From: a virus
Virus record (IMG/VR): IMGVR_UViG_3300029913_000003
Span: 64,001-128,000 of that record
Direction: 5' to 3' (one strand)
Length of the DNA: 64,000 nt
The position numbers and the translations under genes were made by a program. A model generated the notes under the pieces. The model was not told the origin of the DNA, searched no databases, and was given only the letters and a program-made list of their open reading frames with translations. Shown piece by piece: positions 220 to 62,991 of the stretch; within the stretch, counting starts at the first letter, position 1, and every line of letters starts with the position of its first letter.

Positions 220-819
220 TTATAGTTTTCTATTTTTTATTTTGTAAAATTGAAAATCATTTGGTAAATTTTTATTTGGAAAATAATAAGTTAATGTATC
301 ATTAGTAGGCGATATTATTTGTTTGTAAAATCCATTAGGAACATGAGCACCAGATTTTAGAATTAATAAATTTCCAGTAAAATCTAATACAACTTTAACT
401 GTCAATTTTTTATATTTAGTAAATAGAGTAGTTCTTTCATAGTTTTCTAAATGTTCCCATGTTACTCTATTTAATGTATAATATTGCAAAGAGCAATTTA
501 AATATGAAAATGTTTCATATAAATGATTTTTAGTATCAGAAAAAGTTGCGGCTGGAGCTAAATGTCCTTTATCCCATACATTATTCAAATAATCCGCATT
601 AGTTGAAGTAATTATACCTGGAACTTCATAAAAATCCATTCCTGCTCTTGAAACATTCTTTGTCACATTAGTTATATAATAAATAACCCAATTAGGTTGC
701 TTATATACCTCATTGTATGATACAGTATAAATGTCGTTTTTGACTATAACATTAGTTCTTTGAGAAAAAGAAAATAATGTTGCAAACATAAAAATTAATA
801 ATATTGATAATTTTTTCAT
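220..819 (-). CDS. Secreted DNA/RNA non-specific endonuclease (EndoG/Serratia NucA family)
   Basis: N-terminal signal-peptide-like MKKLSILLIFMFATLFSFSQ. Has the DRGH-type active-site motif WDKGHLAPAATF and a downstream N..Q (SYLNCSLQ). Confidence 0.75.
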   Translation of the reverse strand: MKKLSILLIFMFATLFSFSQRTNVIVKNDIYTVSYNEVYKQPNWVIYYITNVTKNVSRAGMDFYEVPGIITSTNADYLNNVWDKGHLAPAATFSDTKNHLYETFSYLNCSLQYYTLNRVTWEHLENYERTTLFTKYKKLTVKVVLDFTGNLLILKSGAHVPNGFYKQIISPTNDTLTYYFPNKNLPNDFQFYKIKNRKL

Positions 820-2854: not shown

Positions 2855-3184
2855 ATGATTAAAGTTTATATTGCATCTCCTTATACAAAAGGAGATCCTG
2901 CAGTTAATGTCAAAACTCAAATTGATATGGCAGATGAATTAATAAATAAAGGATTTGCGCCATTCGTTCCATTATATTTCCATTTTCAACATATGCATCA
3001 TCCCAGACCATATGAAGATTGGTTGAAATTAGATTTAGAATGGATAAAAAGTTGTGATTGTATATTAAGATTACCAGGAGAATCAAGCGGAGCAGATAAA
3101 GAAGTTGATTTTGCAACTAATAATGATACATTAGTATTTTTCTCAATGAAAGATTTATGTTTTTATTACGATATAGAATATTAA
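2855..3184 (+). CDS. Nucleoside 2-deoxyribosyltransferase-like (DUF4406-like) protein
   Basis: Pattern VYIASPYT ... W...LEWIKSCDCILRLPGESSGADKEVDFA resembles the DUF4406/NDT-like fold. The call is by recall only. Confidence 0.4.
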   Translation: MIKVYIASPYTKGDPAVNVKTQIDMADELINKGFAPFVPLYFHFQHMHHPRPYEDWLKLDLEWIKSCDCILRLPGESSGADKEVDFATNNDTLVFFSMKDLCFYYDIEY

Positions 3185-3300
3185 TTTATTGATATATAAA
3201 TATTTAAAAAATATTTTAAAATTTAACACTAAAATATTTGGTGATATGAAAACTTTTAGTAATTTTGCATCACAAACAAAAACAAATGTAATTATTTACA

Positions 3301-3345
3301 ATCAAATCAACTAAGAAAAATAATAAATATCTTAGTTGATTTGAT
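3301..3345. repeat. Perfect 15-bp inverted repeat (hairpin)
   Basis: atcaaatcaactaag ...15 nt... cttagttgatttgat. Confidence 0.5.
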
Positions 3346-3497
3346 AATTTAATAAGAGGACTTGAAAAAAATTTCAAAACTTTAACATTAAATATTTGGT
3401 GAAATGAAAACATTTTTATAATTTTATTCTACAATAAAAAAACAAAAATTTTTAAGTAATAGTATTGAAAAAAAAAAACTTCAAAACTTTATCATTA

Positions 3498-3533
3498 AAT
3501 ATTTGGTAAAACAAAAAACTTTTTGTAATTTTA
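3498..3533 (+). promoter_or_regulatory. Promoter-like unit (-33 TTTG, ~20 nt spacer, -7 TAATTTTA)
   Basis: Matches the Bacteroidetes sigma-A consensus TTTG-N19-21-TAnnTTTG, with one mismatch in the -7 box. Confidence 0.4.
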
Positions 3534-3550
3534 TTCTACAACAAAAAATA

Positions 3551-3568
3551 TCAAGTAAGAGTACTTGA
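3551..3568. promoter_or_regulatory. Palindromic operator-like site TCAAGTAAGAGTACTTGA
   Basis: Perfect 7-bp half-sites, located about 25 nt upstream of a promoter-like unit. Recurs at 4873-4888, 5182-5199 and 5925-5942. Confidence 0.35.
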
Positions 3569-3594
3569 GAAAAAAAGTTCAAAACTTTAACATT

Positions 3595-3631
3595 AAATAT
3601 TTGGTAAAACAAAAAACTTTTTGTAATTTTG
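3595..3631 (+). promoter_or_regulatory. Promoter-like unit (-33 TTTG; -7 TAATTTTG)
   Basis: Full match to TAnnTTTG, preceded by TTTG at about 20 nt. Confidence 0.45.
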
Positions 3632-3703
3632 AACTACAACATCAAAAGAAAAGTAATTATAAAAATTATATTTTAATTGAAAAAAAGTAGAAAAAACTTT
3701 CAA

Positions 3704-3740
3704 AAATATTTGGTAAAACAAAAAACTTTTTGTAACTTTG
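3704..3740 (+). promoter_or_regulatory. Promoter-like unit (-7 TAACTTTG)
   Basis: Same repeated core as the other units. Confidence 0.45.
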
Positions 3741-3813
3741 AACTACAATTCAAAAAGAAATATAGTTTTAAAAAATTAAATTTCAATTGAAAAAAGTTCA
3801 AACTTTAACATTA

Positions 3814-3850
3814 AAATATTTGGTAAAACAAAAAACTTTTTGTAACTTTG
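3814..3850 (+). promoter_or_regulatory. Promoter-like unit (-7 TAACTTTG)
   Basis: Same repeated core. Followed by hairpin RNA-like unit 3890-3958. Confidence 0.45.
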
Positions 3851-3889
3851 AACTACAATAAAAAACAAATCAAACTTCAGATTGAAAAA

Positions 3890-3958
3890 AATCTAATGGT
3901 ACAAAAACCAACTCAAAGCTTGCGAGAGTATAGATAGTGCAAATGAACACACTTAGAT
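3890..3958 (+). repeat. GC-enriched ~70-nt hairpin unit (candidate small RNA), diverged copy
   Basis: atctaatggtacaaaaacc..aagcttgc..atagtgcaaatgaacacacttagat. Terminal ATCTAA/TTAGAT inverted ends. Confidence 0.35.
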
Positions 3959-4167
3959 TAATGTAATAATAATTTAGTAGTAAGGAAACAAACTTTAATC
4001 TTGAAAAAGTTTATAGTGAAACTTGAAAATAAATTTAATATTACAAAAGTAAATATAGTAAGTTCAAACTTACTGTTTCTAATCTGTGAAGATAAAAAGG
4101 ACTGAAAATGATTTGATTTTTATTTACTCTTGTAAACGTACTTGAGAAAAAATAGAAAATACTTTCA

Positions 4168-4205
4168 AAAATATTTGGTAAAACAAAAAACTTTTTGTAA
4201 ATTTA
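4168..4205 (+). promoter_or_regulatory. Promoter-like unit (-7 TAAATTTA)
   Basis: Same core. Followed by the GC-elevated block starting near 4255. Confidence 0.4.
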
Positions 4206-4254
4206 TTCTATAATAATTTAAATCAAAAAATCAGATTTAAACAAGAAATATCAG

Positions 4255-4760
4255 CGAGATTTGCGCTCTGAGTGTATATATTTATAAGAAAATATATATC
4301 AACCAGATGAATGAGAAGCTCATAGTGGTGAGTCAATGATAAGATTATAATCTTAAATAATCAATATTATCAAAGATAGACAGTCCATTGAAACAGATAT
4401 ATAAGACATGTAGAACTTATCTTGTTATAAATATACAAAGCAACCACACCGTGGAGATTGAATATTGGAATTAAATTTCGAATATGATAAAATCCTAATG
4501 TTAGATGAGACGTGACTAACTACTTTCATTCCACTACAAGGACTGATTATTGATTAAATTATAAAATGTTGGAGATAAGCACACAGGGTGCATCATTATT
4601 AGAATAATCTAATTTGAAGGGGCAAGTGTCAATGACACAAGGTTCAATTCCTTCTATCTTCACTATGAATATTGATTTCAACACTGAAAATCAGAACTTG
4701 TTCTGAAAGTAAGTTCCACTATTGATATTCATAACCAACAACAAGCGAGTTTTGGTTAAA
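4255..4760. ncRNA. Candidate structured non-coding RNA (GC-elevated, ORF-free ~0.5 kb)
   Basis: GC clearly above the surrounding sequence. No ORFs. T-loop-like hairpin AAGG-TTCAATT-CCTT at about 4620-4637. Flanked by a 7-nt complementarity AGATAGA (4380) / TCTATCT (4641). Confidence 0.25.
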
Positions 4761-4913
4761 TAATAAATATTAAAAAATGTATATTAATTAATTGAAATCT
4801 CTTGAAAAAGAGCTGTTAATTTAAATAATATGATTTAATAACATTATTTAATCAAAATTCCTTGGATAAAAACAAGTAGGAGTACTTGAAAAATAGTTCA
4901 AACTTTAACATTA

Positions 4914-4950
4914 AAATATTTGGTAAAACAAAAAACTTTTTGTAAATTTG
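4914..4950 (+). promoter_or_regulatory. Promoter-like unit (-7 TAAATTTG)
   Basis: Same core. Followed by hairpin unit 4994-5062. Confidence 0.45.
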
Positions 4951-4993
4951 AACTACAATAAAAAAGAAAATCATAATTCAGATTTAATAGATA

Positions 4994-5062
4994 ATCTAAT
5001 GGGATAAAAACCACCTTGAAGCTTGCAAAAGGAAAGATAGTGCAATTAAACACTCTTAGATT
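4994..5062 (+). repeat. GC-enriched ~70-nt hairpin unit (candidate small RNA)
   Basis: Contains ccaccttgaagcttgcaaaagga. Confidence 0.35.
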
Positions 5063-5181
5063 GATAATGATAATAATCGTAAGATTATTAAATTACAAGA
5101 ATAAATATGATAAATGAAAATTTATTTTTTCTAAGCTGAGAAGCTAAAAGAACTGATAAAAGATTTTTTTTAATACTCATT

Positions 5182-5199
5182 TCAAGTAAGAGTACTTGA
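5182..5199. promoter_or_regulatory. Palindromic operator-like site TCAAGTAAGAGTACTTGA
   Basis: Identical copy of the palindrome at 3551-3568. Confidence 0.35.
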
Positions 5200-5221
5200 A
5201 AAAAATGTAGAAAAAATTCAA

Positions 5222-5258
5222 AAATATTTGGTAAAACAAAAAACTTTTTGTAATTTTG
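5222..5258 (+). promoter_or_regulatory. Promoter-like unit (-7 TAATTTTG)
   Basis: Same core. An upstream palindrome lies at 5182-5199. Confidence 0.45.
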
Positions 5259-5367
5259 TACTTAATAAATAATAATCATCTAATTGAAACTAGTTTATTG
5301 CTTCCATGTGATACTTCAATTTATGATTAGTAAGATTATTATTAATTTAAAAAAGTATAAAAATTCA

Positions 5368-5405
5368 AAAATATTTGGTAAAACAAAAAACTTTTTGTAA
5401 ATTTG
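5368..5405 (+). promoter_or_regulatory. Promoter-like unit (-7 TAAATTTG)
   Basis: Same core. Followed by hairpin unit 5465-5522. Confidence 0.45.
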
Positions 5406-5464
5406 GACTACAATAATGAAACAAATCAAATTTCAGATTGAAGCAATAAAAATATAATGGTACA

Positions 5465-5522
5465 AAAACCACCTTGAAGCTTGCAAAAGGAGATAGTGCA
5501 AATGAACACAACTTATATATTA
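5465..5522 (+). repeat. GC-enriched hairpin unit (candidate small RNA)
   Basis: Same core sequence as 4994-5062. Confidence 0.35.
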
Positions 5523-5544
5523 AGTATCTTGCTGAAACAATTAA

Positions 5545-5612
5545 AATCTAATGGGATAGAAACCACCTTGAAGCTTGCAAAAGGAGATAGTGCAATTAAA
5601 CACACTTAGATA
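5545..5612 (+). repeat. GC-enriched hairpin unit (candidate small RNA)
   Basis: Near-identical to 5639-5706. The tandem period is about 95 nt. Confidence 0.4.
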
Positions 5613-5638
5613 TTAAATATTGTATAAGTAACTAAAAA

Positions 5639-5706
5639 ATCTAATGGGATAGAAACCACCTTGAAGCTTGCAAAAGGAGATAGTGCAATTAAACACACTT
5701 AGATAT
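5639..5706 (+). repeat. GC-enriched hairpin unit (candidate small RNA)
   Basis: Near-identical tandem copy of 5545-5612. Confidence 0.4.
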
Positions 5707-5756
5707 TAATGAAATTGAAAAAGTAATAAAAATAATCAAAGGCAATAGCCACCTTG

Positions 5757-5792
5757 AAGCTTGCAAAAGGAGAGATTAATATTACAAAAGTA
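5757..5792 (+). repeat. Truncated copy of the hairpin unit
   Basis: agccaccttgaagcttgcaaaaggagag. Confidence 0.3.
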
Positions 5793-5979
5793 AATATTGC
5801 AAAAGTAATAAAAATTCAAGGATTTATATTACAAGAGTAGATATAATGAACATAACCAAATGTTTATTGTTCCAATGATAAAGTTCTGTGAAGAACAAAG
5901 GACTGAAATAGATTTGTGACATTTTCAAGTAAAAGTACTTGAACTTTTAAAACAACATGAATTAATATAAAATTATGTA

Positions 5980-6950
5980 GGTTGAAATTCCAGGAAAGTG
6001 GATCAATAATGAGCAGAAAGTTAATGTCTTTCTATCGCTTTTGTTAAGTCTTATTTAAAATTCTTCTATATTAATTCTGTTGTTTTTTTAAAGCGTTCTT
6101 TGTAAAATTGAAAATATTTGGCTGTCTGTAGTCATAAATAAACTACGAAAGTAGTATAAAGTGAGTTATAGTTGTTTCTATAACTTGCGGTATTAAATGT
6201 GCAGTTGATTTTATTTTTTCGGAAATAAAATTAATTGTAAACAATAATACTTGAGCAGACAATCAGGATATCATTAAACCTTGATTATCGAGGGTAACAC
6301 TGTAGAGAAAGTGGTTTAATGCAAAGGCTATGTGGGTAGTCTGAGTGAGATGGGAACATCAATAAGAATAACCTGAAGGATTATTGCAAGAAATACGATT
6401 TCCAGTTGTGTAATTGCGTTATCCAATATAAAAGTTGACTTAAAACCGAAAGGTAAATTAGATTGTAATACAATGTACAGGTGGTGCTGTAATTAAGGTT
6501 ACCTTAACATTACCAAGTGTTACGAGAGTATCTTAGTTGACTTAAAATATGGAGGTAGGGATATCTCAGAGAGTAGTTTAGTATAGCTCAGTTCAAAAGA
6601 TTGAGAAGCTGGTTGTCGAACCACTACTTTCATCATCCACAAAACAAACTTTAACTGCAAATTTAATGCAAATTAAAATAAACAAATAAAGGAAAAGAGT
6701 TCGACTGTTGTTAGTGATAGGTGACTACTAGTTATGAGAAGCAATTCGTCGTAGCCGTGAAAGACCCCAAGTCCAACATGATTTTTAAGAAAGTTCTCTA
6801 AATCCGCAAGATTTAATCTGGAAGGCATTCTAGATGAGTAATGATTATTAAGAGAGTAATTAACAACAAAAGGAGTGGTGAATCTAATTGACCGTCATTG
6901 GAGGAGTACCAATTCAAAAGATTGGTGGAAAAGAAGCAGAAAAAATAATA
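5980..6950. ncRNA. Candidate large structured non-coding RNA (GC-elevated, ORF-free ~1 kb)
   Basis: About 35-40% GC by eye against about 25% around it. No ORF of 60 aa or more on any frame. Many short GC-rich helices. A tRNA-like D-loop/T-loop pair (TAGCTCAGTT ... GGTTGTCGAACC) near 6580-6635. Confidence 0.3.
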
Positions 6951-6999
6951 GTTTCTAAAGTTCTTCTCTATAATGCTGTATTCTCAAGCAATATAAAAT

Positions 7000-7040
7000 A
7001 AAAATCCTATCTAATTGAAAAATTAGATAGGATTTTTTAT
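7000..7040. terminator. Bidirectional intrinsic terminator
   Basis: aaaATCCTATCTAATTgaaaaAATTAGATAGGATtttttt. Confidence 0.55.
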
Positions 7041-7085
7041 TTATAAGCTATTTCACTTATAAATACACTTTATAAGTTATTTCAC

Positions 7086-7397
7086 TTATAAATTGAATTT
7101 GTTTGCATCTTGTTTTAATTTATAATCTTTCATAAATTCTTCAACTTCGTCGTCAATAACTATATATTCTCTGTTTTTTAAACATAATCTATCATCCACG
7201 TACTTTCCTTTTTGATCTAGATACACTCCAACATCACCATTACAGGAACCAAATGGATGAGTAAGAGTACCAGTTAAATACTCATCATCCTCTTTAAATT
7301 TGATTTTAGTGCCTACTGGATATTTAGATCTACCTGCTAATATAACATCATCATCTAACATTGTAAATTGATGCTCATTAAATTTTAGTATTTTCAT
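7086..7397 (-). CDS. Family A variant (N-term MKILKFNE, C-term ANKFNL)
   Basis: C-terminal tag present. Start taken at the ATG at 7397 (MKILKFNEHQ), not at the upstream ORF-track start. Confidence 0.5.
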   Translation of the reverse strand: MKILKFNEHQFTMLDDDVILAGRSKYPVGTKIKFKEDDEYLTGTLTHPFGSCNGDVGVYLDQKGKYVDDRLCLKNREYIVIDDEVEEFMKDYKLKQDANKFNL

Positions 7398-7401
7398 ATT
7401 A

Positions 7402-7851
7402 CTATATATTAAATTTTTTAGCATTAAATATATCAGGATGATTTATCTCTAACCATTTGTTATATTCATCTAAATTGTTATAAGGTAGGTTATTACCTTC
7501 ACATACTAATATTTCTAATGTCTCTGGTAATAATGGTAACTCAGATAAATTATTATTACTACAATTTAATGTCTTTAATGAATATGGTAATGTCGGCAAT
7601 TCTTTTAAATTATTAGAATAGCAAAATATTTTTTTTATTGAGTGCGGTAAAGTAGGTAACTCACGCAAAACATTATTAAAACAAGATAATATCTCTAATG
7701 TCTCTGGTAATGTTGGCAATTCTTTTAAATTATTATTATAGCAATATAATTCTGTTGTTGTATCTGGAATATTTGATATTATAAATAATCCTTTATCATT
7801 TAATGTCAATACATTATCCATTATATGTTCAAATGTTTTTATATATTTCAT
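7402..7851 (-). CDS. Family A protein with leucine-rich repeats (LxxLPxLP type)
   Basis: N-terminal MKYIKTFE, C-terminal AKKFNI. Five tandem copies of NNLKELPTLPETLEIL. Confidence 0.65.
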   Translation of the reverse strand: MKYIKTFEHIMDNVLTLNDKGLFIISNIPDTTTELYCYNNNLKELPTLPETLEILSCFNNVLRELPTLPHSIKKIFCYSNNLKELPTLPYSLKTLNCSNNNLSELPLLPETLEILVCEGNNLPYNNLDEYNKWLEINHPDIFNAKKFNI

Positions 7852-23896: not shown

Positions 23897-24772
23897 TTAT
23901 AAATATTTGAAATAATTATTTTTATAAGATTTTTTGTTACCTGATAATACTTCCCATATTCTATTAGTTTTAGTATTAAAATACGACGCACAATTTTTTA
24001 CACTATTAAATTCTTTAATTATTTCTCCACTTTCTGATATTTGAGCAACTTTTTTAGATCTTAATAATTTATATTCTTCAGTCATAGGTCTTTTTTTTAC
24101 ACCAATCATAGCTTTACTCATTTTCAATTTAACTTCATCTGTTCTTTTTTGACCAGTATTCTTTTTTACCCTTTTTTCAATAGTTTCTTTACTTTGCTGT
24201 TTACCTTTTTTTGAAATGCTTATTTTTAATTTAGCTTCATCACTCATTTTTTTACCTTTATTTAATATACTTAATTTTAATTTAGTTTCATCACTTGTTA
24301 TTCTACCTTTTTGTGATTTACTCATTTTTAATTTAGTTTCATCTGAAATATTTATTCCTTTTAATTTTTCTGATATTATTTTTTTTGTTTCTTCACTTTG
24401 TTTTATACCAAAGTGACTTTTGTTTCCAATACTTTTTTGCCTTAATATATCTTTTGTTTTGTCACTATGTTTCATTCCTAAATTATGTCCAGCATTAGGT
24501 AAAATATTATATCCATTTTTACAGCAATCAAAAAAATCAATATAATATTGTTCTCTAATTAAAATTTCATTAATACTACATTCTTCTAAAATTGTATATG
24601 TAAAATTTTCAATACCATATTTATCATAAGCTCTTTGTAATTTAATAGAATGATGTTTATTCTTTTTTAATTGATTCTTATGTTGAGTAAATCTTCCTTT
24701 AACATTTATTGATGATCCAACATAACATTTATTATTTATTAAATTTGTTATTTTATATACACCAATAATCAT
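23897..24772 (-). CDS. GIY-YIG homing endonuclease (Seg/I-TevI-like) with C-terminal repeated DNA-binding modules
   Basis: GVYKITNLINNKCYVGSS..RFTQHKN is the GIY-YIG motif. Repeated SDETKLKMSKSQKG / SDEAKLKIS modules. Confidence 0.8.
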   Translation of the reverse strand: MIIGVYKITNLINNKCYVGSSINVKGRFTQHKNQLKKNKHHSIKLQRAYDKYGIENFTYTILEECSINEILIREQYYIDFFDCCKNGYNILPNAGHNLGMKHSDKTKDILRQKSIGNKSHFGIKQSEETKKIISEKLKGINISDETKLKMSKSQKGRITSDETKLKLSILNKGKKMSDEAKLKISISKKGKQQSKETIEKRVKKNTGQKRTDEVKLKMSKAMIGVKKRPMTEEYKLLRSKKVAQISESGEIIKEFNSVKNCASYFNTKTNRIWEVLSGNKKSYKNNYFKYL

Positions 24773-62811: not shown

Positions 62812-62904
62812 ATTTCAGGATTTTTTTGTTCTTTCTCTAAGATTTGAACTTAGTCATTCATTGTCAGAAAATGATATGCTATCATTACATCAAGAAAGAA
62901 TATT

Positions 62905-62991
62905 GTCGCCTTGGTGGGGTTCGAACCCACAAGCTCACAATGAGCATCAGTTTCAAAGACTGAAATGTTTAGCCAATTCCATCACAAGGCA
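62905..62991 (-). tRNA. tRNA, type II (long variable arm), anticodon UUG by manual folding
   Basis: Read on the minus strand:
- acceptor stem TGCCTTG / CAAGGCG (U1-G72 wobble), U8, A73
- 3-bp D stem ATG / CAT
- anticodon stem TCAGT / ACTGA with loop CTTTGAA
- variable arm GCTCA-TTG-TGAGC
- T arm GTGGG-TTCGAAC-CCCAC. Confidence 0.6.

Follow-up and report, generated by a model that had tools for sequence, protein, structure and literature searches.

What is encoded by a block of about 1 kb in a viral genome that is richer in G and C than its surroundings and lacks open reading frames (ORFs)? The block occupies positions 5980-6950 of a 64,000-nt stretch of DNA, positions 64,001 to 128,000 of the IMG/VR virus record IMGVR_UViG_3300029913_000003. 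This whole stretch is referred to as the window. The initial annotation, made from the letters alone, had proposed a large structured RNA of the GOLLD, ROOL or HEARO kind, or a ribozyme- or intron-derived element, and had named an Infernal scan and a comparative alignment as checks.

Composition and extent of the ORF-free region

The GC content is 32.3% for 5980-6950 and 33.3% for 6118-6990, against 21.9% for the whole window. The GC elevation described for the block was correct, but the background is 21.9% and not about 25% as had been estimated; the strings quoted for the block were all found in the sequence. The segment 6118-6990 is the top-GC stretch of 873 nt in the window, about 4 sd over the sliding-window mean (mean 21.9%, sd 2.8%). 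The block contains no ORF of at least 60 aa (ATG, GTG or TTG start), as had been stated, and its longest ORF has 51 aa. The ORF-free zone reaches far beyond the block and covers 3185-7085 (3.9 kb), about six times the size of the next gap (611 nt) in a window where ORFs cover 86% of the sequence. It is syntenic in two sister genotypes, L002/L010/L030 and L024/L027. The RNA described below forms the final quarter of this island and is its last element. The features of the region are collected in Table 1.

Table 1. Features of the non-coding island and the tRNA locus, in window coordinates.
Feature	Positions	Strand	Basis and remarks
Promoter units, start of the -33 TTTG	3237, 3395, 3502, 3600, 3709, 3819, 4174, 4919, 5227, 5374	+	
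Small RNA, good copies	3888-3962, 4991-5065, 5449-5523, 5543-5616, 5636-5709		model R1, 86-98 bits
Small RNA, degenerate copies	3969-4033, 5731-5800		
Aberrant tRNA-like element	4571-4663	+	ARAGORN call at 70% threshold only
Candidate Bacteroidota-type promoter, weak	6079-6110	+	-33 GTTG, 20-nt spacer, -7 TAAAATTG
GOLLD 5' domain, ~450 nt	6118-6568	+	alignment with other GOLLDs and covariation; unmodelled by Rfam
AT-rich, lineage-specific extension of a variable 5'-domain hairpin	6189-6256	+	alignment, fold
First long hairpin of the GOLLD 3' domain	6569-6632	+	Rfam model positions 1-62 (cmscan), fold
A-rich linker, 25.7% GC	6633-6705	+	unpaired at Rfam model positions 63-136
GOLLD 3' multi-helix core	6706-6990	+	Rfam model positions 137-416; holds CGCAA loop 6805-6809
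Bidirectional intrinsic terminator	7000-7037	.	17-bp stem, T-runs on both strands; GOLLD (+) vs convergent ORF 7086-7424 (-)
Two adjoining tRNA-Gln genes (CUG, UUG)	62828-62899, 62905-62991	-	only tRNA locus of the window

Identification of a GOLLD RNA

The Rfam scan of the window at gathering threshold (cmscan) matched 6569-6990 on the plus strand to GOLLD (RF02032) at 278.9 bits (E about 1.6e-78), where the Rfam gathering score is 150. The match covers model positions 1-416 of 416, and it is the sole non-tRNA match in the window. The 3' core was aligned with a posterior probability of about 0.99 and very few non-canonical pairs. Permissive searches (3000-7200 at E <= 1; 4200-4800 at E <= 10) returned only GOLLD and two noise matches, and no other Rfam family was found in 3000-7200 at E <= 1. 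The proposal of a large ornate phage RNA was thereby borne out by the full-length match, whereas a ribozyme- or intron-derived element found no support. The Rfam model describes only the conserved 3' domain of GOLLD, in which a long hairpin comes first and an unstructured linker follows. The segment 6571-6640, which had been taken for a tRNA-like element, is this first long hairpin and aligns to the model column for column; neither ARAGORN (default; introns allowed) nor the Rfam tRNA model called a tRNA there.

Taken together with the 5' domain described below, the segment ~6118-6990 (+) is identified as a complete GOLLD RNA, with a probability of roughly 0.93. Its length is ~873 nt to the end of the model, or ~925 nt if it is transcribed as far as the terminator at 7000-7037. 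Members of the family are non-coding and about 700-850 nt or longer; the window copy, at ~873 nt, has no ORF of at least 60 aa. The RNA has a two-domain architecture, consisting of a covarying 5' domain, the hairpin, the A-rich linker, and the 3' multi-helix domain. Within this known family the copy is an ordinary one, and can be found by any Rfam-based annotation.

The 5' domain and the boundaries of the RNA

In published GOLLD RNAs the 5' domain has ~420 nt, is less conserved, and is structurally separate (PMC12286853). The segment 6118-6568 is homologous to the GOLLD 5' domains on 20 other phage loci. LR745206, a 634,780-bp uncultured phage, was the sole DNA-level match in the phage collection. 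It aligns with window 6267-6391, which lies 5' of the Rfam match, and the same locus has a full GOLLD 3' domain (287 bits). A motif, ATCGAGGGTAACNNNGTAGAGAAA (window 6287-6310; ATCGAGGGTAAC...GTAGAGAAA), is common to the window, LR745206, and 19 IMG/VR contigs. The contigs with relatives reach 330 kb in length. In 12 of the 12 relatives tested (LR745206 and 11 others), the 3' domain of GOLLD was found directly downstream as a full-length Rfam match, at 237-332 bits.

The alignment of the 5' domain (A1) consists of 17 sequences, 16 of them distinct, and contains the long invariant blocks TAAATAAAC, ATAAAGTG, ATCGAGGGTAAC, GTAGAGAAA, and ACAGGTGGTGCTG. RNAalifold predicted 98 pairs, with compensatory double changes in 66 of the 98. 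In an independent count, 95.9% of the cells were paired, compared with 38-42% when the partners were slid by 1-3 columns, and the covariation score was 0.57 against 0.08-0.11 in the slid controls. None of 500 shuffles matched any observed measure. The comparative alignment that had been named as a check therefore revealed abundant covariation in the 5' part, outside the Rfam model.

In the 21-sequence alignment, conservation rises at ~6118 (..TTTGGCTGTCTGTAGTCATAAATAAAC..) and falls past ~6990, and the 5' end of the GOLLD RNA is placed only by this onset. The limits of 5980-6950 given initially start ~140 nt too early and end ~40 nt too early: 5980-6117 lies outside the conserved RNA and 6951-6990 inside it. 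The homologue of window 6105-6995 measures 800-890 nt in complete relatives and 1003 nt in L002. The extension at 6189-6256 is missing from most relatives, is present in the window, and is much longer in L002/L010; it folds as an 18-bp extension (z = -5.1). Identity to the sister genotypes L002 and L024 is 86-92% over GOLLD, against about 78-82% over the adjoining non-coding island. The window GOLLD has been selectively maintained, with both domains and the linker.

The transcription unit of GOLLD

The terminator hairpin that had been noted after the block was confirmed, with 17 bp and a T-run (fold z = -6.9). Directly past it, 7040-7097 consists of two 29-nt tandem repeats (TTTATAAGCTATTTCACTTATAAATACAC), each with a palindrome TTTATAAG..CTTATAAA, which overlap the stop of the convergent ORF 7086-7424. 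The ORFs right after GOLLD, at 7402-8420 (-), encode leucine-rich-repeat and ankyrin-repeat proteins, an unusual cargo for a phage.

The promoter-like box noted at about 6100 gave no sigma-70 call, and the sigma-70-like sites of the region occur at chance frequency (13 vs 12.6 expected). At best, the box is a weak Bacteroidota-type promoter. Its -7 half (CTTTGTAAAATTGAA) is similar to that of the repeated consensus promoters of the island (CTTTTTGTAATTTTGAA), and the candidate ends just short of the onset of conservation. It matches the consensus with two mismatches, a class of sites whose excess in the window is marginal (377 vs 340 expected; 377 was reached in 4 of 100 shuffles). Such a weak promoter would start transcription at about 6115-6120. 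It is just as possible that transcription reads through from the consensus promoter at 5374-5405 and that the transcript is then processed. GOLLD may belong to a longer precursor, because no convincing terminator separates it from the small-RNA array upstream; between the two there are weak hairpins (5924-5943 and 6011-6041, z about -1.2). In five relative loci, a tRNA-Met lies just 5' of GOLLD and would yield a processed 5' end, while the island of the window has no tRNA. The env-38 GOLLD also lies just 3' of a tRNA-Met (PMC12286853).

The box before GOLLD (TTTGTAAAATTGAAAATATTTGG; 6099-6122) has one further near-identical copy in the window, at 241-264 (0.01 expected by chance), in the 3'-terminal part of the endonuclease ORF 220-819 (-). 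A promoter class defined by TTTGTAAAATTGAAAAT.ATTTGG was considered and is not obvious, with this single other copy, which falls within the end of an ORF on the minus strand.

Promoter units, small RNAs and tRNAs of the island

The rest of the island contains about ten near-identical promoter units (AATATTTGGTAAAACAAAAAACTTTTTGTAAnTTTG), all on the plus strand. The Bacteroidota sigma-A promoter consensus is TTTG-N19-21-TAnnTTTG; seven of the units match it exactly and three have one mismatch. Exact matches number 10 in the window, compared with 3.1 expected, and 7 of the 10 are inside the ORF-free island. Several units are followed merely by ~60-100 nt of A-rich sequence until the next unit. 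An inverted repeat, (T)CAAGTA-nnnn-TACTTG(A), was observed at 192-206, 3552-3567, 4873-4888, 5183-5198, and 5926-5941. Three of its four island copies are located 30-35 nt upstream of a promoter -33 TTTG. The copies at 192-206 and 5926-5941 precede a T-run and are terminator-like; the repeat may be a terminator or an operator.

A cloverleaf-like small RNA of ~74 nt is present in five good and two degenerate copies. Four of the seven are in tandem at 93-94 nt spacing, immediately upstream of GOLLD. The 11-nt loop GAAGCUUGCAA is invariant, and the outer stem covaries among the copies (AUCUAA, AUAUAA, and AUGUAA, with matching partners). The cells are paired at 92.5%, against 28-55% in slid controls, in an alignment that was fitted to the model. 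The folding energy of single sequences is unremarkable (z = -0.6), and the wobble pairs divide evenly between the strands (8 vs 8). No Rfam match was obtained, and ARAGORN with default settings called no tRNA. Scans of viral and metagenome sequences found the small RNA in three genotypes of one phage lineage and nowhere beyond them. The family is undescribed. A pairing of the invariant loop with GOLLD was also considered, and was rejected: the 7-mer concerned lies within a paired helix, and on inspection by eye the complementarity was judged consistent with chance.

The tRNA-like element in the island has a 7-bp acceptor stem (GGAGATA/TATCTTC), a D-arm (GCAC/GTGC) with GG, and a T-arm (AAGG-TTCAATT-CCTT) with a canonical T-loop; its anticodon region is aberrant. 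In L002 and L024, the loops of the homologues are 8 nt long (AUUCGAAU and AUUCAAAU). The element is part of a conserved stretch of 30% GC (4240-4760) that has no Rfam match.

No tRNA was found in the island by ARAGORN or Rfam, and ARAGORN (default, introns allowed) called neither a tRNA nor a tmRNA within the block or close to it. At the 70% threshold, ARAGORN gave only noise, the tRNA-like element, and, on the minus strand, calls at copies of the small RNA. The nearest tRNAs are about 56 kb away (62,828-62,991). Of the two tRNA-Gln genes there, the second has 87 nt, with a hairpin insert of ~14 nt in the variable region, and the locus adjoins the second-largest ORF-free gap of the window. Most GOLLD relatives have tRNA arrays next to the RNA, but the window copy has not; tRNA adjacency is a frequent association of GOLLD and not a defining feature. 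On LR745206 (L001), GOLLD lies between copies of an odd tRNA-like element of ~95 nt (GGTCGGTTCGTCTAATGG...GTTCGATTCCTCTACCGAC) that ARAGORN does not call; the coordinates noted at this locus are 2553-2650 and 3740-3845, and also 2293-2384. A 'tRNA-???' or weak tmRNA-like match was obtained upstream of GOLLD at this locus.

GOLLD might be the end of a dedicated island of non-coding RNA (3185-7085), driven by the host polymerase, in which the ~74-nt RNAs and the aberrant tRNA-like RNA have replaced the tRNA array. We regard this view of the whole island as speculative and, on balance, unlikely.

The phage genome and its host

The window encodes a T4 gp32-type single-stranded DNA-binding protein (SSB), a GIY-YIG homing endonuclease (at 23897-24772), a nucleotide-sugar epimerase, and methyltransferases of the Dam and Eco57I types. 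The best matches of the gp32-type SSB (tblastn) were LR745206 and LR756501-4, uncultured phages of 634-735 kb, with 42-47% amino acid identity. LR745206 is one of these 634-735 kb phages and also carries GOLLD. The largest huge phages described by Al-Shayeb et al. 2020 all belong to the Mahaphage clade, with predicted replication in Bacteroidetes (PMC7162821), a host prediction that extends to the 634-735 kb phages. GOLLD is not mentioned in the main text of that huge-phage paper (PMC7162821). The genome, at 22% GC, looks like that of a Mahaphage-type huge phage, and its host is probably a member of the Bacteroidota.

The closest genotypes are L024/L027, L002/L010/L030, and L025, the last being that of the window; they are syntenic over the island. 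L025 (Ga0302186_10062798) is a 1,479-nt JGI metagenome contig and is 100% identical to window 4795-6273. The public sample of this contig thus contains the phage genotype of the window.

Comparison with known RNAs

GOLLD RNA (RF02032) reportedly goes back to Weinberg et al. 2009. The window copy resembles the known members in its full match to the 3' model, its covarying 5' domain, its A-rich linker, its length of ~870 nt, and its location in a phage. The closest relatives of the window copy are situated in tRNA islands, often just 3' of a tRNA-Met, as in env-38. It differs in its carrier, a 22%-GC huge phage that apparently infects Bacteroidota; in the lack of any tRNA for about 56 kb; in the extra AT-rich helix extension of the 5' domain; and in its neighbours, where the place of tRNAs is taken by repeated consensus promoters and by a small-RNA array not described before.

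HEARO/OMEGA RNA and OLE RNA are likewise large 'ornate' non-coding RNAs of bacteria. The partner of HEARO is the IsrB nickase, and the partners of OLE are membrane proteins. No Rfam match to HEARO or OLE was obtained in 3000-7200 at E <= 1, and no such domain was found in the flanking and large ORFs scanned against Pfam. ROOL, too, is a large non-coding RNA of phages and prophages that is located by tRNA arrays, and like GOLLD it assembles into nanocages made of RNA alone (PMC12286853). However, its sequence and secondary structure are unrelated to those of GOLLD, and its 5' and 3' halves are intertwined. No Rfam match to ROOL was found in 3000-7200 at E <= 1.

Alternative explanations

The GOLLD copy could be a decaying relic in non-coding phage junk that has lost its function or expression. 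The tRNA neighbours of most relatives are missing here, a dedicated promoter is not clear, and the location is a repeat-rich, ORF-free island, all of which would suit a relic. Against this, a strong terminator stands directly 3' of the RNA. A relic is very improbable, because the match spans the whole model and very few of the pairs are broken, because the pairs of the 5' domain are retained at the rate of the relatives, and because GOLLD is 86-92% identical among the three sister genotypes while the island is about 78-82% identical.

It is less probable still that the block encodes another large RNA (ROOL, HEARO/OMEGA RNA, a group I/II intron, RNase P, or tmRNA), or a chimera with a real tRNA at 6571-6640. 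The strings TAGCTCAGTT and GGTTGTCGAACC do look like D- and T-arms, and GOLLD linkers sometimes contain tRNAs; yet ARAGORN called neither tRNA nor tmRNA, also with introns allowed, the segment follows the consensus of the GOLLD hairpin in each column, and the permissive Rfam search of 3000-7200 gave no further family. A coding function, by an alternative genetic code or as small peptides, is given an equally slight chance. Several ORFs of 30-51 aa are present, mostly on the minus strand, and the related Lak huge phages recode stop codons. But recoding of TAG or TGA alone produced frames of at most 93 codons across 3185-7085, and recoding of both at most 127, none of them a long ORF; and the conservation takes the form of paired compensating substitutions, without codon periodicity. 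A complete GOLLD RNA remains the preferred reading of 6118-6990.

Proposed assembly and function

Two GOLLD cages have been solved, the env-38 14-mer (D7 symmetry; PDB 9MEE) and the S. agalactiae 12-mer (PDB 9L0R) (PMC12286853, PMC12990946). GOLLD needs no protein to fold into closed homo-oligomeric cages, with the 5' domains as caps, the 3' domains as rings, and the linker inside, and its expression goes up in phage lysis (PMC12286853, PMC12990946). The stoichiometry of the two solved GOLLDs varies with the content of the 5' domain, and GOLLD linkers sometimes hold embedded tRNAs (PMC12990946). The disordered linker of the solved structure, whose counterpart in the window is 6633-6705, points to the interior of the cage (PMC12286853).

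Judging from its genomic context, the window GOLLD would be made by the sigma-A RNA polymerase of the host when a huge Mahaphage-like phage infects a member of the Bacteroidota. Transcription would start at the weak promoter of 6079-6110 or would reach GOLLD by read-through, from the consensus promoter at 5374-5405. By analogy with the env-38 and S. agalactiae relatives, the transcript of 6118-6990 would fold without protein. Kissing loops and A-minor contacts would then join its copies into a self-assembled, closed homo-oligomeric nanocage, in which the 5' domains would form the caps and the 3' domains the rings, and the linker would face inward, as in the solved relatives. The CGCAA loop at 6805-6809, with its palindromic GC, is tentatively assigned to the symmetric kissing loop L21a by its position in the Rfam model. 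The cage and its oligomeric state are extrapolated from the two solved homologues, and the extra helix at 6189-6256 is present here. Encapsulating or scaffolding of tRNAs, ribosomes, or other cargo has been proposed as the function of the GOLLD cage.

Implications

GOLLD is now placed in Mahaphage-type huge phages with predicted Bacteroidota hosts, such as LR745206. The 17-sequence, covariation-backed alignment of the 5' domain supplements the Rfam model, and the window copy provides a very AT-rich, insertion-bearing variant. The small-RNA island around GOLLD might be the part worth further work. A tRNA-free island of consensus promoters and a small structured RNA amounts to a natural experiment on the partners of the GOLLD cage. 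Should the small RNAs prove to mimic tRNAs and to work together with the GOLLD cage, or to be packaged inside it, they would be its first genetically linked candidate partners.
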